Source of the DNA: Escherichia coli
GTDB lineage: Bacteria; Pseudomonadota; Gammaproteobacteria; Enterobacterales; Enterobacteriaceae
Reading direction: 5' to 3' (one strand)
Assembly (NCBI RefSeq): GCF_013122565.1
Contig: NZ_CP053258.1
DNA: 64,000 nt
The notes beneath the pieces are model-generated. The model was not told the DNA's origin. It saw only the letters and a list, made by a program, of their open reading frames with translations, and ran no database searches. Shown piece after piece: positions 5,189-53,767 of the stretch; the first letter of the stretch is position 1; every line of letters begins with the position of its first letter. Made by a program: the position numbers and the translations under genes.

Positions 5189-6949
5189 TCAGTTAGCGAT
5201 AAAACGCTTCTCGTCTGTCAGTACTTGCAATAACAAACTTAACTGTGGTTTTTCATCTTTCACTCTTTCACCACGTAAGTTGTAAGTACGGTATTTACCG
5301 TTATTGTTCAGCACCAGCGTCTTTTTCGGGGTGGTAATTGCCAGCGTATCGTTATCCGCGGCGGTAACCCAGTAATGACGGCGTTGAGGGTTGAACAAAT
5401 CCTGACCTTGCGAATATTCGCTGGCAGGTGTGCTGACATGTAGCAGGCGTTGCATCAGCGTCGTCATCAGATCGGTATGATCAGTCAGAGCATTAATACG
5501 CTGCGCCGGCGTGCCTGGCCAGTGAATCACTAATGGTACCTGCAGATGACCGTGGGACCAGTCAAAGGTTTCTTCCTCTTCGCTCAGCGGAATACCCCGA
5601 CCGGCAGTGATAATCACCACCGTATTGTCCAGTTTGCCAGAATCACGCAGTGCATTGAGCACGCGGTTGATCTGGTCATCGACATTGCCTGCCGCCCGGC
5701 TATATTTCCGTGAAAATGCCTGCTGATTGCTGTCGTCAATGTTAGTGCCATTGAAAGAGACCCACGAGAACCAGCGGTTATCTTCTTGTGCGTAGCGGCC
5801 CAGCCAGTTGATCCACTGCGTGGCGGTCTGCTCGTCGGATTGGGTGCGTACGCTCGGCATCGAGAAATCTGACAACAATGCCTGGCGATACAGCGGGCTG
5901 GTAAAGCCATCTGACGAGAATAACCCCAGCTGATAGCCTTGCTGATTAAGCGCAGTAATTAACGCCGCAGGGGTACGGGTCGACAGAATGCCGTCCATAT
6001 AGCTCGGCGAGATGCCATAGAACAGGCCAAAGATGCCGTTGTCTGTAGTGTTGCCGGAGCTCATATGGCGCGTGAACGAAATATTTTGCTCAGCAAAACC
6101 TGCCAGCGCAGGCATCTGCTTCTCGAAGCGTGAGTAGTTCAGGCCATCGACAGTAATCAACAGCACATTCTGCCCAGTGCCCATATCGCGATAGCGCAGT
6201 TCGCTTAACGGATACTGAACGGAAACGGCGTCTGGATTACCTTGCTCAATAAGACGGCGTTGATACTCCTGCGCATCAAGCAGGCCATGCTTCTCAAGAA
6301 AACGTCGCGCCGTCATCGGGTACGAAAGCGGCAGGTTAGCGCGCTGCATGGTGATCGGGCGATAGAAGTTGGCATCGGCCCAGATATACACCACATGCGA
6401 GGCGATAAAGGCGATAAATAAGAATGCGGCCAGCGGGCGCGCGAAGCGTCGACGACGCGTCAGGCTGCGCAGCTTTTGCCAGCTCCACGTCGCAAACACC
6501 AGTTCAAGCAATAAAATAACCGGCACGCTGATGAACATCAGCTGCCAGTCGCGCGCCATCTCATTTTCGTCTGGGTTGATAACCAGTTGCCAGACGATGG
6601 GATTAAGATGGAGATGGAAACGAGTAAAGACTTCGCTATCGATCAGTAATAGCGTCATTCCCGCCGTTGCCAGAATGACGGACAAAAACCTCATCAGCCT
6701 CTGGGAGCCGACGATAAAGGTCAGCGGGAAGAGGATTAGCAAGTAGGTGGCAAACACCAGGAAGCTGAAATGGCCGATAATGCTTACGTAGGAATAAATG
6801 CGACCAGCAAGCGTGGTCGGCCAGTCGGCGATAAACAGGTAACGGCTGCCAATGACGAGCGAAAGCAGAATATTGAACAGTGCAAACCAGTGCCCCCAAC
6901 TGACCATCTGGGAGACTTTTTCACGGTAGCGCTGACGATGAGTTACCAT
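5189..6949 (-). CDS. yejM: Inner-membrane sulfatase-fold protein YejM/PbgA (regulator of LPS/cardiolipin homeostasis)
   Basis: 586-aa ORF with five N-terminal transmembrane helices and a periplasmic alkaline-phosphatase/sulfatase-like domain; conserved position. Confidence 0.9.
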   Translation of the reverse strand: MVTHRQRYREKVSQMVSWGHWFALFNILLSLVIGSRYLFIADWPTTLAGRIYSYVSIIGHFSFLVFATYLLILFPLTFIVGSQRLMRFLSVILATAGMTLLLIDSEVFTRFHLHLNPIVWQLVINPDENEMARDWQLMFISVPVILLLELVFATWSWQKLRSLTRRRRFARPLAAFLFIAFIASHVVYIWADANFYRPITMQRANLPLSYPMTARRFLEKHGLLDAQEYQRRLIEQGNPDAVSVQYPLSELRYRDMGTGQNVLLITVDGLNYSRFEKQMPALAGFAEQNISFTRHMSSGNTTDNGIFGLFYGISPSYMDGILSTRTPAALITALNQQGYQLGLFSSDGFTSPLYRQALLSDFSMPSVRTQSDEQTATQWINWLGRYAQEDNRWFSWVSFNGTNIDDSNQQAFSRKYSRAAGNVDDQINRVLNALRDSGKLDNTVVIITAGRGIPLSEEEETFDWSHGHLQVPLVIHWPGTPAQRINALTDHTDLMTTLMQRLLHVSTPASEYSQGQDLFNPQRRHYWVTAADNDTLAITTPKKTLVLNNNGKYRTYNLRGERVKDEKPQLSLLLQVLTDEKRFIAN

Positions 6950-6968
6950 AACCTGTTATCTGTTTCCC

Positions 6969-7196
6969 TTAGTGCGCTTTGTCTTCGTTGATAGAGGACT
7001 GTAAGGCGCGGGCAAAAGAGTTGGCAATTGCCTGGCGTTGGGCCGGGGCAATGCTAGTGTTGATAAGGTTAGTGACCATGTTGCCTAACACCATCAGGGA
7101 AAGGTCGGTCGGAGCCTTATGTTTTTCCAGTACGTTGAGCAGCTCTGCGAGCAATTGTTCAACTTGTTCATCACTGTAGCGGGAAATTTGTGGCAT
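6969..7196 (-). CDS. yejL: UPF0352 small protein YejL
   Basis: 75-aa ORF ([26 protein letters not shown]…), conserved position between yejM and yejK. Confidence 0.8.
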
Positions 7197-7377
7197 AAAT
7201 CGAAATCAGTTAGTTGATGAAAGGGCAACATATTACCGTAGCAACGGTTTTTTTTCTGCTTTTTTATGCGTTAAATCATTCTCGTTACGCTGCCTTCTGT
7301 AAAATGACCGCCATCTTTTATTGCGTCGCTTAACCGGCGGTGGTTGAATACCGCCCGGTCTTAAAGGAGAGTTTATC

Positions 7378-8385
7378 ATGAGTCTGGATATCAACCAGAT
7401 TGCTCTGCACCAGCTTATCAAGCGTGATGAGCAGAACCTTGAGCTGGTGTTGCGCGATTCATTGCTGGAACCGACAGAAACCGTCGTTGAGATGGTGGCA
7501 GAACTGCATCGGGTCTATAGCGCCAAAAATAAAGCTTACGGCTTGTTTAGCGAAGAGAGTGAACTGGCGCAGACGCTGCGCTTACAGCGTCAGGGCGAAG
7601 AGGACTTTCTGGCATTTAGCCGCGCGGCAACCGGTCGCCTGCGTGACGAATTAGCGAAATATCCTTTTGCTGACGGTGGATTCGTGCTGTTTTGCCACTA
7701 CCGTTATCTGGCGGTGGAGTATCTGCTGGTGGCAGTCCTGAGCAACCTGAGCAGTATGCGCGTTAACGAAAATCTCGACATCAACCCAACCCATTATCTT
7801 GATATCAATCATGCGGATATTGTTGCGCGTATCGATTTAACCGAATGGGAAACCAATCCAGAGTCGACCCGCTATCTCACTTTCCTGAAAGGGCGAGTAG
7901 GGCGCAAAGTGGCGGATTTCTTTATGGATTTCCTCGGGGCCAGCGAAGGGTTAAACGCGAAAGCGCAAAACCGTGGGCTGTTGCAAGCGGTTGATGATTT
8001 CACTGCCGAAGCACAACTGGATAAAGCAGAGCGACAGAACGTGCGCCAGCAGGTTTATAGCTACTGTAATGAGCAGCTGCAGGCAGGCGAAGAGATTGAA
8101 CTGGAGTCGCTGTCGAAAGAGCTGGCAGGCGTCAGCGAAGTGAGCTTCACGGAGTTTGCGGCTGAAAAAGGCTACGAACTGGAAGAGAGCTTCCCGGCAG
8201 ACCGTAGCACACTGCGTCAGTTGACGAAGTTTGCCGGTAGCGGCGGTGGCTTGACTATTAACTTTGATGCGATGCTGTTAGGTGAACGCATCTTCTGGGA
8301 TCCGGCGACCGATACCCTGACCATTAAAGGCACGCCGCCGAATTTGCGCGACCAATTGCAGCGCCGGACGTCTGGTGGGAACTAA
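7378..8385 (+). CDS. yejK: Nucleoid-associated protein YejK (NdpA)
   Basis: 335-aa ORF ([19 protein letters not shown]…), conserved gene order. Confidence 0.9.
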
Positions 8386-8765
8386 ATCTCCAACGCGAAT
8401 GTTTCTTTTCGGAGAAACAGTTGCGGGATAATCACAATTCTTGTCAATCAGTTAGTGAGATGACTTGCTGATTGACCTTTCATTCGAAAATGTTTTCTCT
8501 GTTATTATACTTAGTGTTACTGAAAATATTATTCTCTTATCCCCTTTATTCGATAATAAATCGGTCTGGTCACTATTTCCGCCGTTTTTTGTGAGCTGTA
8601 ACACTGGAAAAATCATTCTGTTTAATTATATTGAGTTTACTTGGCGTTATATGTTGTTATTTGCTTTGACTATATAAAATGCAAATGTATTCTTAATGTC
8701 AATATTATTGTCGTTATGTTTGACTCATTATATTAATCGTATGAATAGTTTTAAGGATTCACCGC

Positions 8766-47533: not shown

Positions 47534-49513
47534 ATGTTTAGGTTGAACCCTTTCGTACGGGTCGGGCTGTGTTTGTCCGCTATTTCTTGTGCATGGCCTG
47601 TGTTAGCGGTCGATGATGATGGCGAAACGATGGTTGTCACTGCATCTTCCGTTGAACAAAACCTTAAAGATGCACCTGCCAGTATCAGCGTCATTACCCA
47701 GGAAGACCTGCAGCGAAAACCGGTACAGAATCTGAAGGATGTCCTCAAAGAAGTGCCTGGCGTACAACTGACGAACGAAGGGGATAACCGTAAGGGCGTT
47801 AGTATTCGTGGTCTGGACAGCAGCTATACCCTGATTCTTGTCGACGGTAAACGCGTTAACTCCCGCAATGCCGTCTTCCGCCACAATGATTTCGATCTGA
47901 ACTGGATCCCGGTCGATTCCATCGAACGTATTGAAGTGGTTCGTGGCCCGATGTCGTCGCTGTACGGTTCCGATGCGCTCGGCGGTGTTGTGAATATCAT
48001 CACCAAAAAAATCGGTCAGAAATGGTCGGGTACCGTTACCGTCGATACCACCATTCAGGAACATCGCGATCGCGGTGATACCTATAACGGTCAGTTCTTT
48101 GCCAGCGGACCATTAATTGACGGTGTGCTGGGAATGAAAGCTTACGGCAGCCTGGCAAAACGTGAAAAGGATGATCCGCAAAACTCAACGACCACCGATA
48201 CTGGAGAAACGCCGCGTATTGAAGGATTCTCCAGCCGCGACGGCAATGTCGAATTTGCCTGGACACCGAATCAAAATCACGATTTTACTGCCGGATACGG
48301 TTTCGACCGTCAGGATCGTGATTCCGACTCGCTGGACAAAAACCGCCTGGAACGCCAGAACTACTCCGTCAGCCATAATGGGCGTTGGGATTACGGCACC
48401 AGCGAACTGAAATACTACGGTGAGAAAGTCGAGAACAAAAACCCTGGCAACAGCAGCCCGATAACTTCCGAAAGCAATACGGTCGACGGCAAATACACGT
48501 TGCCGCTGACGGCGATTAATCAGTTTCTCACAGTTGGCGGTGAATGGCGTCACGACAAACTTAGCGATGCGGTGAACCTGACCGGGGGAACCAGCTCCAA
48601 AACGTCTGCCAGCCAGTACGCGCTGTTTGTGGAAGATGAATGGCGGATCTTCGAGCCGCTGGCGCTGACGACCGGCGTACGTATGGACGATCATGAAACC
48701 TACGGTGAACACTGGAGTCCGCGTGCCTACCTGGTTTATAACGCCACCGACACCGTAACGGTGAAAGGGGGCTGGGCGACGGCATTTAAAGCGCCTTCTC
48801 TGTTGCAACTTAGCCCTGACTGGACGAGCAATTCCTGCCGTGGCGCATGTAAGATTGTGGGTAGCCCGGATCTGAAACCAGAAACCAGCGAAAGTTGGGA
48901 GCTGGGGCTTTACTATATGGGTGAAGAAGGCTGGCTGGAAGGGGTTGAATCCAGCGTTACCGTTTTCCGTAACGATGTGAAAGATCGCATCAGCATCAGC
49001 CGTACGTCTGACGTCAATGCTGCACCGGGCTACCAAAACTTTGTCGGTTTTACAGCGGGCGGTGTGCCGGTATTCAGCTACTACAACGTTAACAAAGCAC
49101 GTATTCAGGGCGTGGAAACCGAACTGAAAATTCCGTTCAACGATGAATGGAAACTGTCACTCAACTACACCTACAACGATGGTCGTGATGTCAGCAACGG
49201 CGAAAATAAACCGCTATCCGATCTGCCGTTCCATACTGCTAACGGTACGCTGGACTGGAAACCGCTGGCGCTGGAAGACTGGTCATTCTATGTTTCTGGT
49301 CACTATACCGGGCAGAAACGAGCCGACAGCGCGACGGCTAAAACACCGGGCGGTTATACCATCTGGAATACCGGCGCGGCCTGGCAGGTGACCAAAGATG
49401 TCAAACTGCGCGCAGGCGTGCTGAACCTTGGCGACAAGGATCTCAGTCGTGACGACTACAGCTATAACGAAGACGGACGTCGTTACTTTATGGCAGTGGA
49501 TTATCGCTTCTGA
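47534..49513 (+). CDS. cirA: TonB-dependent outer-membrane receptor CirA (catecholate siderophore/colicin Ia receptor)
   Basis: 659-aa ORF with signal peptide, TonB box (ETMVVTAS), plug and beta-barrel ending in the terminal aromatic residue (…AVDYRF). Confidence 0.9.
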
Positions 49514-49520
49514 TGAGAAG

Positions 49521-49547
49521 ATGCCCGGCGCGGATCCTGCCGGGCAT
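49521..49547. terminator. GC-rich hairpin downstream of cirA (terminator-like)
   Basis: Perfect 9-bp stem atgcccggc…gccgggcat directly after the cirA stop; no clear U-tract. Confidence 0.4.
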
Positions 49548-49571
49548 AATGCCAGAAATTCGGTTCTGGAT

Positions 49572-50894
49572 TTATAACCGATGAAATTTTGCCAGTAAGG
49601 CCAGTGAAAATGTTGTCAGCAAAATGGTAATGACGGCGTAAATATACACGCCTGACCATTCCCAACTGTTTTTCACCATAATAACTGGAAGCCCTGCCAT
49701 TGCCGCGCCTACATAACTAAATAAGCCCCTGAACCCAGTAATGGAACCTGCCGCATCTTTATGCGTAACATCAAGACATCCGACAGCGAATAACATATGT
49801 GGTCCATATAATGCAAACCCCATGATTGTAAAAAGAATAGCCGTTAATGTGTAGGAGACGTCCTGCACCAGCGGCACGAGAACGATGCAAATACATAAGG
49901 CGATGGCAAACATTAATCCGGTCATCCAGCGGTTACTTTTAAACATAAAATCGGACAAGTACCCCGCCAGTAATCCCCCTGCAAGTCCACCTGCTTCAAA
50001 CCAGGATATAATGGAGTTCGCTTTAATCAGGCTCCAGTTATGAACCTGAGAATAATAAATTTGTGGCCAGTCATTGAGGATGGTGCGTGCAATATAGACT
50101 GACATATCCCCGAGGATAATCAGCCAAACTAATGGGTTGGTAAGAATATATTTAATGAAAATTTGCCAAAAACTCAGATCTACCGGGCTTGCTTTAACTT
50201 GTGCAAGTTCTGTCGGGTCGTTGCGCCACTTACCTACGTTAGGCAAACCGAGTGTGCCAGGACGATCTTTAATCGTAAACAGGGCAACAACCCCCATAAT
50301 CAGCGATATTACACCCGGAACATAAAAGCCCATTTTCCAGCTGCCACTAAAAGCAATGGCAAAGCTTGTCAGGAGAGGCGCAAGACTACCGCCAATATTA
50401 TGCGCCGCTTCAACAACTGCCCACCAGCGCCCGCGTTCATTTTTAGAAAACCACGAGGCCATAATTTTTGCCATCGGCGGAAAACTGGTACCCTGAAGAA
50501 TAGCATTAAGGCTATACAGGATATAGAACGCAGCAACGCTGTCTGAAAAACCGAAAAGAATGTTAACAATACCGACGCCAATAAGTACGGGGCCGGTCAT
50601 TGCGCGTGGGTTAATTTTATCGACTAACATGCCCCCTACAAACTTCATGGAGCCATAAAGAATGTAAAAGACCGACGACATGATAGCGAAATCTTGTGCG
50701 GTTAATGACGTATCCGTCAACATCGCCGGCATGGCCGCAGAGAAATTCTTGCGGGTTAAATAAAATACGGCATAAGAGATAAATACAGAGGTGATGATTT
50801 CAATACGAAATTTTTTATAAGTATGATCAACTTCTTCTTTCGGTTTGACCACTGGTTGGTCGGCCTGGCTGAAAATAAATTTTTTCAAGCTCAT
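49572..50894 (-). CDS. MFS organophosphate:phosphate antiporter (GlpT/UhpT/PgtP family); accessory, substrate unknown (phosphoserine proposed)
   Basis: 440-aa, 12-TM ORF; N-terminal region (…YRRLRWQI… / YLVRKNFALAMP in GlpT versus …YKKFRIEI… / YLTRKNFSAAMP here) and overall architecture match the OPA family; AT-rich. Confidence 0.8.
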   Translation of the reverse strand: MSLKKFIFSQADQPVVKPKEEVDHTYKKFRIEIITSVFISYAVFYLTRKNFSAAMPAMLTDTSLTAQDFAIMSSVFYILYGSMKFVGGMLVDKINPRAMTGPVLIGVGIVNILFGFSDSVAAFYILYSLNAILQGTSFPPMAKIMASWFSKNERGRWWAVVEAAHNIGGSLAPLLTSFAIAFSGSWKMGFYVPGVISLIMGVVALFTIKDRPGTLGLPNVGKWRNDPTELAQVKASPVDLSFWQIFIKYILTNPLVWLIILGDMSVYIARTILNDWPQIYYSQVHNWSLIKANSIISWFEAGGLAGGLLAGYLSDFMFKSNRWMTGLMFAIALCICIVLVPLVQDVSYTLTAILFTIMGFALYGPHMLFAVGCLDVTHKDAAGSITGFRGLFSYVGAAMAGLPVIMVKNSWEWSGVYIYAVITILLTTFSLALLAKFHRL

Positions 50895-50926: not shown

Positions 50927-51814
50927 CTATAGTTTTTCTTCTATAAAAAAGAGAAGCGACTCGAAACCATTAAAATTAATCTGGTTAGTAACTTTTTCCC
51001 GGGTTTTAGGTTTTGCTTTCCATGCCACGCCATACCCGGCATGCAGAAGCATAGGAATATCATTAGCGCCATCTCCGCAGGCAATGATGTTTTCACGACA
51101 AATAGATAACTCTGTCGCCAAATTTATCAGGGTTTGCTTTTTCTTTTCTGCATTCATAATGGGAAAGGTAATTTTGTCAGTTAATAGATCTTCCTGAATG
51201 CGTACAGAGTTAGAAAATGCAAAATCAAGTTGATATTTTTCTTTTAATCTCTCAGTAAAAATATCTAAACCGCCGGATATAATTGCCGTCTTGAATCCTT
51301 TTTCTTTAAGAATGGGAAGAATAGTTTTAAGACCTGGTGAAAGGGTCATCTGTTCACAAACCTGATGCAATATATCTTTATGTGTTCCTTTAAGCATGCC
51401 AATTCGGCGGGTAAAACTGGTATCAAAATCGATTTTTCCTTCCATCGCTTCACGGGTCAGCGCGGTGATTTTTTCAGAGATCCCGAGTCTACGGGCTATT
51501 TCATCGACGCCTTCCTCTTCAACAAAGGTGGAATCCATATCAAAGGCAATAATTCCCTCAGCCGGTAAGTCCGTAGGTTTGCGGAAAAAATCAAAATGAT
51601 GATGATCAGCACGGTGACGTAAACCAGCATAAAAATCAGGATTGGTTACATCATCTGTTAATACTAGCTTTAGATACTCTTTATTTATTTGCTCACTGTA
51701 ATTCGTTGTTAACGAAAACACCGAGGATGAAACCTTTAAATGTTGCAAATAATGTTCCAGACATTTTTTGGTGATGTCGATGCCTGTTGGCGACAAGAAA
51801 TAAATAATCGTCAT
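50927..51814 (-). CDS. HAD-superfamily phosphoserine phosphatase paralog (SerB-like)
   Basis: 295-aa ORF with HAD motif I (FDMDST), motif III Lys and motif IV (GDGANDIPML); strongly resembles E. coli SerB (…DMDSTAI…, …GDGANDLPMI…AKPK…). Confidence 0.8.
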   Translation of the reverse strand: MTIIYFLSPTGIDITKKCLEHYLQHLKVSSSVFSLTTNYSEQINKEYLKLVLTDDVTNPDFYAGLRHRADHHHFDFFRKPTDLPAEGIIAFDMDSTFVEEEGVDEIARRLGISEKITALTREAMEGKIDFDTSFTRRIGMLKGTHKDILHQVCEQMTLSPGLKTILPILKEKGFKTAIISGGLDIFTERLKEKYQLDFAFSNSVRIQEDLLTDKITFPIMNAEKKKQTLINLATELSICRENIIACGDGANDIPMLLHAGYGVAWKAKPKTREKVTNQINFNGFESLLFFIEEKL

Positions 51815-52023
51815 TTACCGCTCCTTTTTATCTGCAATGATTATAATAAGGTTTCGTAGCGGCTGATGTATCTAACAATCACAGTTGTGAATGTTAAATA
51901 AAAGATAAAAAAGTGCTTTTTTTGATACCCTGAAATAATAAGATACTAAAAGTACCATTTTTGATACCTTTGCCAGGATATAACGAATAACGAGTTTCAA
52001 CGTTGAAGGAATCATTTACAAAA

Positions 52024-53376
52024 ATGGAAAGCTGCTTAGATATATTCAAGATAGTTATAGGTCCATCCAGTTCCCGCACTGTCGGGCCAATGCGTGCGGC
52101 TTATAATTTTGTCTCACAATTGAAACAGCGAGAAATGTTACCTTTGTTGCGGAAAATTGATGTCGAACTTTATGGCGCACTGTCATTAAGCCGCAAGTGC
52201 CATAATGTTGATGTGGCGATTTATCTCGGTTTGCAAGGTCACTTACCTGACAGCGTTGATATCCGCATGGAAATGTCCGCCATCAGGCGTGCGGAAACTG
52301 AGGCGACGCTGGAAGTTATGCCTGGTGTCAACGTTGGTGTAGCCATTATTTCTAATCCACAGGCGCACCCGGGGCATCCTTATGCGATGACATTTCGTGC
52401 CAGAGATGACTGGTTTACGCTTTATGAAGAAACCTGCTTTTCTGTCGGCGACGGTCAGGTTCAAAAAGCGGGAGAGGCGATGATTCCCTCCTCAGTCACT
52501 CCACATCCTTTTGAATTCCAGAACGCAAACGAATTATTAAAACTTTGTCAGCAAAACGGATTATCTGTTGCGGCATTAATGATGAAAAACGAACTACACT
52601 GCCAGACTTCTGATTTTTTGCATGACGATCTCAATAAAAAATGGGAAGTAATGAAGGATGCGGTCTATCGCGGGATGCATACAGAGGGATTACTTCCTGG
52701 TCCGTATCAGGTTAACCGTCGTGCCTGTGCTTTATATAAATCGTTGCAGGCAAAGGGGTTTACCAATGACTTCCTGACTACGATCAATTGGGTCAATACT
52801 TTTGCCATTGCGGTGAGCGAAGAAAATGCTGCAGGTGGACGCGTCGTGACAGCACCCACCAACGGCGCGAGCGGTATTATCCCGGCCGTACTGTGTTGGT
52901 ATGACAAATTCATTCACGAGCTTGATACTTACTCCGTTACCCGCTTTTTTCTGACCGCCGGTGCCATAGCCATTCTGTTCAAAAAAAATGCCTCTATTCT
53001 GGGGTCTGAAGTTGGATGTCAGGGGGAAATAGGCGTTGCCAGTTCAATGGCGGCAGCAGGATTAGCAGAACTTATGGGCGGGTCAGTGACTCAGGTACTC
53101 AGCGCGGCAGAAATTGCGATGGAACACCATTTAGGTTTGACCTGTGATCCAGTTGGCGGGCAGGTACAAATTCCTTGTATTGAACGAAATGCTATTTCAG
53201 CCGTGAAAGCTATCAACGCAACGACGATGGCTTTGAGTCGCATAAGCGAGCCGTGCATTACGCTGGATGAGATAATTTCCGCGATGTATGAAACCGGAAA
53301 GGATATGAGCGCTAAATACCGGGAAACTTATCATGGCTGTCTTAGCAAATTGCAGCCAAGAAAAAAGGACGCGTAA
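52024..53376 (+). CDS. L-serine dehydratase paralog (SdaA/SdaB family, Fe-S dependent)
   Basis: About 450 aa; N-terminal IGPSSS(R/H)TVGPM motif, central …[23 protein letters not shown]… and C-terminal …[19 protein letters not shown]… all near-identical to E. coli SdaA; start set at the ATG following an AAGGA ribosome-binding site (the ORF track begins 21 nt upstream at TTG). Confidence 0.8.
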
Positions 53377-53377
53377 G

Positions 53378-53767
53378 ATGAAATACAATACCATGAATAA
53401 CAACGAAATTATTTTATCTCTGTGCGCACGTATTAAAGAAACGCGGATCTCATTATCATTGACCCAGCAGCAGTTAGCCGATCGTGCATTGGTGGGCATT
53501 GCAACGGTCAAGCGGATTGAAAAGGGGGGAAGTTTAAATCTTGATACCCTCATTTCTCTTCTGCGCGCGCTGAATAAATTGCAAAATCTCGATGCCATAT
53601 TGTTCGAAGCAGAAATGCGTAATTTCAATGAAAATACTTCCAGCGGCGAAGGGGCAGGGCGACTTCAGGTGCGCCAGCAACTGACAGATTTAAACCAGAA
53701 GTCTCCAGCCCCGCACGCAGATGACCGTGATTTTAGTACGGCGCTGGAAAATACTCTTTGCTGGTGA
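53378..53767 (+). CDS. Small XRE-family helix-turn-helix transcriptional regulator
   Basis: 129-aa ORF with HTH (…SLTQQQLADRALVGIATVKRIEKG…); start set at the ATG 1 nt after the serine dehydratase stop. Confidence 0.6.
   Translation: MKYNTMNNNEIILSLCARIKETRISLSLTQQQLADRALVGIATVKRIEKGGSLNLDTLISLLRALNKLQNLDAILFEAEMRNFNENTSSGEGAGRLQVRQQLTDLNQKSPAPHADDRDFSTALENTLCW

Follow-up and report, generated by a model that had tools for sequence, protein, structure and literature searches.

A divergent organophosphate:phosphate antiporter of Escherichia coli, encoded beside a SerB-type phosphatase and an L-serine dehydratase, as a predicted O-phosphoserine:phosphate exchanger

Introduction

In a stretch of 64,000 nucleotides of Escherichia coli DNA (contig NZ_CP053258.1 of assembly GCF_013122565.1), hereafter called the window, four genes lie between cirA and yeiG, and one of them, at 49572..50894 on the minus strand, encodes a 440-residue paralog of the organophosphate:phosphate antiporters (OPA family, within the MFS). 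On the basis of its substrate pocket and of the genes beside it, this protein is considered here as a predicted exchanger of O-phosphoserine for inorganic phosphate (Pi). In carrier strains it bears only the RefSeq label “MFS transporter”. The original prediction, made from the letters of the window alone, had regarded it as an OPA paralog distinct from GlpT, UhpT and UhpC, whose genomic coupling to a phosphatase and a serine dehydratase pointed to a non-canonical organophosphate substrate.

Gene Cluster

The window carries the order nfo-yeiH-yeiE-lysP-cirA, then the four extra genes, then yeiG-folE-yeiB-galS. The flanks are those of E. coli, with 99.1% identity over 6 kb, and the insert amounts to 4.25 kb of GC-poor DNA (37-46%), the serB-type gene being the most AT-rich of the four (38% GC). 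In K-12, the stop codons of yeiG and cirA are 31 bp apart (L015 3747-3779), and the spacer between them is devoid of the cluster.

The extra genes make up a pair of units transcribed divergently. In that of the minus strand, a gene for a SerB-family phosphoserine phosphatase paralog of 295 residues (50927..51814; TIGR00338) lies 32 nt upstream of the transporter gene. The two are on the same strand and probably co-transcribed, and no terminator-like site was found in the 32-nt gap. On the plus strand, a gene for an Fe-S L-serine ammonia-lyase (L-serine dehydratase) paralog of 450 residues (52024..53376; TIGR00720) is followed, 1 nt past its stop codon, by that of an XRE/Cro-type helix-turn-helix (HTH) regulator of 129 residues (53378..53767), recognized through Pfam HTH_3 (E=4e-9, residues 19-66) and the annotation of its RefSeq orthologs; the original prediction had not mentioned it.

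Identity of the Transporter

The open reading frame (ORF) of the transporter is intact, with 440 codons, an ATG start and a ribosome-binding site (AAAGGAAA) located 7-14 nt upstream. The original prediction had counted 12 helices in this protein of 440 residues and had recognized a GlpT-like N-terminal motif; both observations are borne out. Residues 45-56 read YLTRKNFSAAMP (Y-L-T-R-K-N-F-S-A-A-M-P), the GlpT counterpart being YLVRKNFALAMP, and the AlphaFold2 model, which was computed from a small alignment, has 12 transmembrane (TM) helices and a helical central loop (mean pLDDT 88.7, pTM 0.88). Foldseek finds the closest folds, at a TM-score of about 0.8, in the human glucose-6-phosphate (G6P) transporter G6PT/SLC37A4 and in GlpT of E. 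coli (1pw4). At the sequence level, the best match in the PDB is GlpT 1pw4 (E=2e-68), G6PT being matched at E of about 1e-51, and Pfam MFS_1 is found on the orthologs. The 12-TM MFS fold and the significant similarity to GlpT and G6PT place the protein in the OPA family (TC 2.A.1.4), together with the family's paired arginines on TM1 and TM7 (R45/R269 in GlpT, R46/R275 in UhpT) and the equivalents of GlpT K80 and H165.

Within the family, the protein stands apart from the described subfamilies. Its identity to the K-12 paralogs is 38% for UhpC, 31% for GlpT and 26% for UhpT, and it matches every OPA-family NCBIfam model, reaching the curated cut-off of none. The best-scoring model is that of the UhpC subfamily (NF008661, 422.5 bits against a cut-off of 564), on which genuine UhpC-like control proteins score 570-826. 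The PgtP subfamily model TIGR00881 gives 340.2 (cut-off 407.75) and the PgtP equivalog NF047787 216.4 (750); the GlpT equivalogs TIGR00712 and NF008433 give 277.1 (632.55) and 264.5 (748); and the UhpT equivalog NF007107 gives 195.1 (497). The genomic context agrees with these scores: neither glpQ nor glpA adjoins the transporter gene, and uhpA, uhpB, uhpT and the pgtABC genes are likewise absent from its neighborhood. The only trait shared with PgtP is an uncompensated cation on TM11, described below.

In a neighbor-joining tree of 51 OPA proteins (436 columns, Kimura distance, 100 bootstraps), the transporter and its relatives down to 54% identity constitute one clade with a bootstrap of 100. 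This clade groups beside the proteobacterial UhpC proteins at 65% bootstrap, and lies far from GlpT, UhpT and a PgtP-like sequence. Among 1.84 billion representatives clustered at 50% identity, the sole full-length sequence more than 40% identical to the transporter is that of Photobacterium lutimaris (P0008, 68%, 697 bits), the second-best full-length match reaching 320 bits. A firm position among the orthologs of GlpT or UhpT, with the same residues in the binding site, would have gone against the original prediction; no such position was found, and the cut-offs, the tree and the pocket residues together exclude orthology with GlpT, UhpT, UhpC or PgtP. The distinctness claimed initially, which concerned the first three, holds.

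Phosphate Site and Substrate Pocket

The phosphate site of the family is entirely kept. GlpT R45, K46, K80, H165, R269 and D274 correspond to R48, K49, K84, H165, R270 and D275 of the transporter, and the equivalents of GlpT Y38, Y42, Y76, N166, Y266, E299 and Y362 are conserved as well. R48, R270, K84 and H165 are invariant both in an alignment of 7 sequences and in one of 137. The comparison of GlpT Arg45, Arg269 and His165, which the original prediction had put forward, does not discriminate among substrates, because the phosphate site is common to the whole OPA family; differences do exist, at the positions that face the organic moiety.

A screen was made for positions invariant in the nine full-length homologs with an identity of 64% or more, the residue being found in <5% of 125 other representatives of the OPA family. 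Out of 440 positions 26 were retained, four of them charged or ionizable: E162, D263, H366 and R389. E162, invariant in all nine homologs, occurs in 0 of the 125 other representatives, which have N or S there. D263 is found in four of them (N or Y in the others), H366 in three (mostly Q in the others) and R389 in two (V, T or I in the others). In a 54%-identical outlier (P0014), positions 162, 366 and 389 are occupied by N, Q and K, and no SerB gene adjoins that of the transporter.

In human G6PT with bound G6P, studied by cryo-electron microscopy and mutagenesis, two subsites are distinguished, one for the phosphate and one for glucose, the second being made up of W118, W138, S142, Y233, the backbone of I346, and H366 (PMC12552596). 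In a HMMER alignment, G6PT S142, Y233 and I346 correspond to E162, D263 and H366 of the transporter. G6PT H366 aligns with T386 of the transporter, which is the position of UhpT D388; therefore, R389 occupies the selectivity position of UhpT K391. The intrahelical D388/K391 pair that characterizes TM11 of UhpT is thus represented by T386 and R389. According to the work of Hall (1999, 2001), as summarized in PMC12483993, the loss of UhpT D388 leaves K391 uncompensated and shifts the preference from G6P to phosphoenolpyruvate (PEP) and 3-phosphoglycerate (3PG); the same source states that both residues can be neutralized with G6P transport retained.

An arginine at position 389 with no aspartate partner therefore fits a substrate that bears a carboxylate, and the unique acidic residues in the pocket fit a substrate that has an additional cationic group. 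Taken together, a cation able to accept a carboxylate and one or two acidic residues are, as far as alignment can tell, what one would expect if the substrate were a phosphorylated amino acid.

These same positions bear on two other readings of the protein. The first is that of a hexose-phosphate sensor or low-rate G6P carrier resembling UhpC of E. coli, which is a G6P receptor and low-rate carrier. UhpC is indeed the nearest relative (38-42% identity), with the same length, 12-TM fold and phosphate site, and its subfamily is both the best NCBIfam match and the nearest neighbor in the tree. Nevertheless, the score stays under the UhpC cut-off, and the uhpAB/uhpT context is missing, an XRE regulator being found instead. 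In the pocket, the transporter has V-E for W-N (TM5), D for Y (TM7), H for Q (TM10) and R for V (TM11), so that the three positions aligned with glucose contacts are charged or ionizable in the transporter and not in UhpC. We regard this reading as very improbable.

The second is that of a PgtP-like carrier of phosphoglycerate or PEP, with SerB and the dehydratase serving some unrelated handling of serine. In its favor, PgtP, the phosphoglycerate/PEP:Pi antiporter of Salmonella, and the UhpT D388 mutants have in common with the transporter an uncompensated cation on TM11, tied to carboxylate-bearing organophosphates, and a PgtP-like protein (P0124) likewise has Arg at the UhpT K391 position. 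In addition, two distant relatives of the transporter (P0011, 64%; P0014, 54%) adjoin D-2-hydroxyacid dehydrogenases of the phosphoglycerate-dehydrogenase type. However, the identity to PgtP is of about 28%, the PgtP equivalog score is 216 against 750, the tree sets the clade well apart from the PgtP-like sequence, and no pgtABC genes are nearby. Moreover, the two extra acidic pocket residues, E162 (0/125) and D263, would disfavor a trianionic substrate. The enzymatic partners also differ from those of PgtP: imported 3PG or PEP enters glycolysis directly, and therefore neither SerB nor a serine dehydratase would be needed. We consider a PgtP-like substrate improbable.

Partner Enzymes

The phosphatase exceeds the cut-off of the SerB equivalog TIGR00338 (210.3 against 144.15) and stays below that of the housekeeping enterobacterial SerB model PRK11133 (205 against 413), and is therefore a paralog; the match to the ThrH model is weak (49 bits). 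Its motifs DMDST, SGG, K225 and GDGAND are invariant among the SerB proteins compared, and it keeps the equivalents of D11, D13, E20, M43, F49, R56, S99, K144, D167, N170 and D171 of the M. jannaschii phosphoserine phosphatase (PSP; 1f5s). Among these, E20, M43, F49 and R56 reportedly contact the serine moiety, according to work by Wang and colleagues from 2001/2002. By its score, its motifs and its serine-moiety residues, the enzyme is a predicted SerB-type phosphoserine phosphatase of the haloacid dehalogenase (HAD) subfamily HAD-IB. The Salmonella ortholog has been crystallized (PDB 4eze, E=6.5e-116) and deposited as a “haloacid dehalogenase-like hydrolase”; it was reportedly an Enzyme Function Initiative and CASP10 target from S. 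Typhi, and a study of HAD substrate profiles by Huang and colleagues, from 2015, might include activity data on it.

The divergent gene encodes a predicted Fe-S L-serine ammonia-lyase. The protein scores 545.4 on TIGR00720 (cut-off 345.1), staying below the cut-offs of the SdaA/SdaB-type equivalogs; it matches the L-serine dehydratase of Legionella (4rqo) at E=5e-108, and the three cysteine motifs that hold the Fe-S cluster (GCQGE, LTCDP and IPCIERN) are conserved. As an Fe-S dehydratase, it would be oxygen-labile.

Distribution and Linkage

The species scan took one genome for each of 100,044 species and used narrow search patterns, so that its counts are lower bounds. The transporter clade was found in at least 15 species. 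Identity is 95% in Escherichia whittamii, 88-92% in eight Citrobacter species, 91-92% in the representatives of the Salmonella subspecies arizonae and diarizonae, 77-82% in three Gallibacterium species and 68% in Photobacterium lutimaris. A cluster of 6223 Salmonella enterica sequences is 91% identical to the transporter of the window. Of 5426 complete E. coli genomes, only 89 (about 1.6%) have the gene cluster, which in them is always chromosomal and single-copy, with 96-98% nucleotide identity to the window. Plasmid carriage was considered and set aside: the PLSDB matches above 80% identity are Salmonella records of 300-500 kb and one fragment of 9.8 kb, which look like chromosomal pieces.

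All the Escherichia, Salmonella and Citrobacter loci have the arrangement folE-yeiG-[HTH<-sda][serB->MFS]-(cirA)-lysP. The XRE HTH gene is present in all the copies of these three genera, and the L-serine dehydratase in all the enterobacterial versions. Genomes with a SerB-type gene beside that of the transporter are those of E. coli, E. whittamii, Salmonella and the eight Citrobacter species; the same adjacency is seen on a Salmonella-associated contig of 8.6 kb (L010), in Photobacterium lutimaris and on a metagenomic contig (L012). The last three are the places where the linkage is seen outside the inherited locus. On L010 (3473-7434), the order is HAD->MFS->HTH, with sda convergent, and the proteins are 72% (transporter), 50% (SerB), 50% (dehydratase) and 53% (HTH) identical to those of the window; in P. 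lutimaris and on L012 the order is MFS->SerB, so that serB is found both before and after the transporter gene. The phosphatases linked outside the inherited locus all exceed the SerB equivalog cut-off, and are 34-50% identical to the enzyme of the window. The coupling to a phosphatase and a serine dehydratase, on which the original prediction relied, is thus found again in other genera, with different phosphatase alleles and a different gene order.

The L010-type variant (L010 3473-7434 and L011) has phage-lysis, phage-tail and autotransporter genes as flanks, which suggests that the module can also move.

Gallibacterium, a genus of Pasteurellaceae of poultry, represents an odd host range with respect to the Escherichia, Salmonella and Citrobacter group. 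Its transporters (loci L024, L025 and L028; 77-82% identity) carry the full E162/D263/H366/R389 signature, and no serB, sda or HTH gene adjoins them. Two metagenomic contigs with a Pasteurellaceae-like context (L008 and L009) similarly have the transporter standing alone. As for the distant relatives P0011 and P0014, neither has a SerB neighbor, and the dehydrogenases beside them (L014 206-1396; L007 1993-2925) give 274 bits with the phosphoglycerate dehydrogenase model and 458 bits with PRK08410; they may represent a link to the phosphorylated serine pathway, or hint at a different substrate.

Evolution of the Cluster

With respect to E. whittamii, the ratio of non-synonymous to synonymous substitution (dN/dS) ranges from 0.05 in the transporter gene, through 0.07 in that of the regulator and 0.11 in that of the dehydratase, to 0.21 in serB; the ratio of the transporter with respect to Salmonella is 0.02. 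All four genes are under purifying selection, the transporter strongly so. The synonymous divergence (dS) from E. whittamii is 0.47-0.54 for three of the cluster genes and 0.26 for the regulator, the flanking cirA and yeiG giving 0.49 and 0.66. Divergence from Salmonella differs widely among the four: the transporter, at 91% identity, is as conserved as core genes and far ahead of the others, the regulator standing at 75%, the dehydratase at 72-73% and SerB at 62%.

From the synteny and a dS like that of the flanks, it follows that the cluster has long been inherited vertically in this section of the Enterobacteriaceae and that most E. coli have lost it. A recent horizontally acquired island, which the low GC content, the rarity in E. 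coli (85-89 of the 5426 genomes) and the empty K-12 spacer might have indicated, is overruled by the same two observations.

It could also be argued that the adjacency of these genes is functionally meaningless, the cluster being a decaying remnant and the transporter serving an unrelated substrate. Its presence in only 89 of the 5426 complete E. coli genomes, its GC content of 37-46% and the solitary transporter of Gallibacterium would go in this direction. Nevertheless, the four ORFs are intact and of ortholog length, dN/dS lies between 0.02 and 0.21, synteny is kept across Escherichia, Salmonella and Citrobacter, and the linkage of transporter and SerB arose again with unrelated SerB alleles and in reverse order (Photobacterium and the metagenome). 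Consequently, we judge a meaningless adjacency to be highly unlikely.

Proposed Function

Both the altered pocket and the recurrent linkage speak for the non-canonical organophosphate substrate originally proposed, and the recurrent linkage to SerB and the dehydratase allows it to be narrowed to O-phospho-L-serine. The sequences establish the family of the protein, its distinctness from the described subfamilies, the conservation of the signature residues, the linkage and the purifying selection. What we infer for the substrate, for the direction and exchange mode of transport, for the individual residues and for the regulation is the following. The OPA antiporter would take in external O-phospho-L-serine against cytoplasmic Pi; the SerB-type phosphatase would convert the imported phosphoserine to L-serine and Pi, the latter being the counter-substrate of the next cycle; and the Fe-S dehydratase would convert serine to pyruvate and ammonium. 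In the transporter, the phosphate of the substrate would be held by the family-wide site (R48, K49, K84, H165 and R270), its carboxylate by the uncompensated Arg389 (TM11) with His366 (TM10), and its alpha-ammonium by Glu162 (TM5) and/or Asp263 (TM7).

That the substrate is an amino-acid phosphate or an amino-organophosphate, phosphoserine included, seems to us probable. Phosphoserine:Pi antiport followed by dephosphorylation and by deamination to pyruvate and ammonia is the best explanation of the ensemble, and we hold it with moderate confidence.

The nearest competitor is a Pi-exchanging carrier of a different phospho-amino or amino-organophosphate compound, such as O-phospho-L-threonine, O-phospho-D-serine, phosphoethanolamine or species derived from glycerophosphoserine, or of a broad set that includes phosphoserine. 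E162 and D263 argue for a cationic group without pointing to serine in particular; phosphatases of the HAD-IB type can be promiscuous, and the ThrH model is weakly matched; and the phosphatase diverges rapidly (dN/dS 0.21). However, in each linked case the adjoining phosphatase is above the SerB equivalog cut-off, that of the window retains the equivalents of R56 and E20, which bind the serine carboxylate and amine in PSP, and the other partner is an L-serine-specific Fe-S dehydratase, useless for ethanolamine and of little use for threonine. Phosphoethanolamine, in particular, has no carboxylate such as R389 implies. On balance, we take a substrate of this other kind to be unlikely.

Several points weigh against phosphoserine as the substrate. 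The neighbors in Escherichia, Salmonella and Citrobacter come from one inherited locus and therefore constitute one observation of linkage, not many, and in the three Gallibacterium species and the two metagenomic orthologs neither serB nor sda adjoins the transporter. The exposure of E162, D263, H366 and R389 to the pore rests on alignment to G6PT and UhpT. In addition, E162 and R389 might pair, giving a neutral, compensated arrangement like that of UhpT D388/K391, a caveat that extends to every reading of the pocket. SerB-family HAD enzymes can accept other phosphomonoesters, and the phosphatase has changed far more quickly than the transporter has (62% against 91% identity to Salmonella). 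Finally, in the part of the literature that our search spanned, no work was found on this protein, on this cluster or on any phosphoserine transporter.

Regulatory Region and Flanking Features

The two transcription units diverge from an intergenic control region of 209 bp (51815..52023), through which the XRE regulator would act on both. This region contains two direct copies of TTTTTGATACC (51919-51929 and 51958-51968), 39 bp apart, and an inverted half-site GTACCA (51952-51957), which reads GGTATCA in Salmonella. In the comparison of the window, E. coli 2013C-4830 and Salmonella, these repeats and the half-site are the best-conserved blocks of the spacer, the remainder being poorly conserved, and they constitute a candidate operator for the XRE regulator. 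An ATCACAG block is also conserved farther upstream. Scans with sigma-70 and terminator consensus sequences gave hits no more numerous than in shuffled sequence, and none in the divergent spacer.

The start of the dehydratase gene is ambiguous, the longest ORF beginning at a TTG (52003) and the RefSeq orthologs at the ATG at 52024. At the other end of this unit, the stop of the regulator gene (53767/53768) abuts that of the convergent yeiG with zero intergenic space; at this junction, the last residues of YeiG are not the same in the window as in K-12.

The spacer between the convergent cirA and transporter genes (49514..49571) contains a hairpin CCAGAA..TTCTGG and another, GCCCGGC..GCCGGGC, which is the terminator hairpin of cirA and is also present in K-12; neither was called by the consensus scanner. 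The cirA ORF of the window, taken from the ATG at 47534, encodes 659 residues, compared with 663 annotated in other strains. In most Citrobacter (L017-L019, L021, L022, L027 and L029, at about 6700-8700), the position of cirA is occupied by a gene for a TonB-dependent receptor, 36-40% identical and on the opposite strand; that flank is therefore not conserved, although the cluster is kept.

Significance

With GlpT, the sn-glycerol-3-phosphate:Pi antiporter, the transporter has in common the phosphate-site residues, the pocket tyrosines and the YLxRKNFxxAMP motif, and presumably the rocker-switch mechanism of Pi exchange; it differs from GlpT (31% identity) by E, D, H and R in place of N162, N262, V365 and the T at the 391-equivalent position, and by having no glpQ or glpABC nearby. 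With human G6PT it has in common the fold (TM-score of about 0.8) and the logic of two subsites, A for the phosphate and B for the organic moiety, and each has a partner phosphatase acting on the trans side, which is G6PC for the human protein and would be SerB for that of the cluster. The differences lie in the overall identity (28%), in subsite B, where S142, Y233 and I346 are replaced by E162, D263 and H366, in the residue one turn past G6PT H366, which is R389, and in the predicted substrate, an amino-acid phosphate and not a sugar phosphate.

The nearest known functional analog is PhnCDE, the phosphonate ABC importer of E. coli, which is reportedly the phosphoserine uptake route of K-12, according to an account by Wanner and Metcalf from 1992 that is cited in work on genetic-code expansion with phosphoserine. 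This unrelated ABC system, driven by ATP and broad in specificity, belongs to the Pho regulon; it does not operate by Pi antiport, and is not known to be linked to SerB or to a serine dehydratase.

A further proposal, which we see as evenly balanced between right and wrong, is that this clade represents the first bacterial antiporter dedicated to the exchange of O-phosphoserine for phosphate, forming with SerB and the dehydratase a self-contained operon for phosphoserine catabolism; that the signature E162/D263/H366/R389, in the subsite of the organic moiety, turns a UhpC-like sugar-phosphate pocket into one for amino-acid phosphates; and that Salmonella, Citrobacter and a few Escherichia thereby use phosphoserine derived from the host or the diet as a source of carbon, nitrogen and phosphorus. 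Such phosphoserine could come, speculatively, from the breakdown of phosphoproteins and phospholipids, from milk casein or from egg phosvitin.

Two practical consequences may be mentioned. In genetic-code expansion with phosphoserine, the intracellular supply of the amino acid is limiting, and a dedicated importer, if this is one, would be a practical tool. Furthermore, an extra carrier of the OPA family could offer fosfomycin another entry route, as GlpT and UhpT do.

For the family, what is at stake is a new substrate class within known transporters and not a new kind of system, which we regard as a well-supported prediction. A 2022 review of organophosphate uptake gives as OPA substrates only glycerol-3-phosphate, hexose-6-phosphates and PEP/phosphoglycerates (PMC9306846). 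If the proposed function is correct, amino-acid phosphates would be the fourth substrate class of the classical bacterial OPA antiporters, and the residue code E162, D263, H366 and R389 would extend the selectivity rule of UhpT D388/K391. For the organisms, it would define a nutrient niche that sets Salmonella, Citrobacter and some E. coli (about 1.6%) apart from the other E. coli, a difference that could affect the colonization of the gut.

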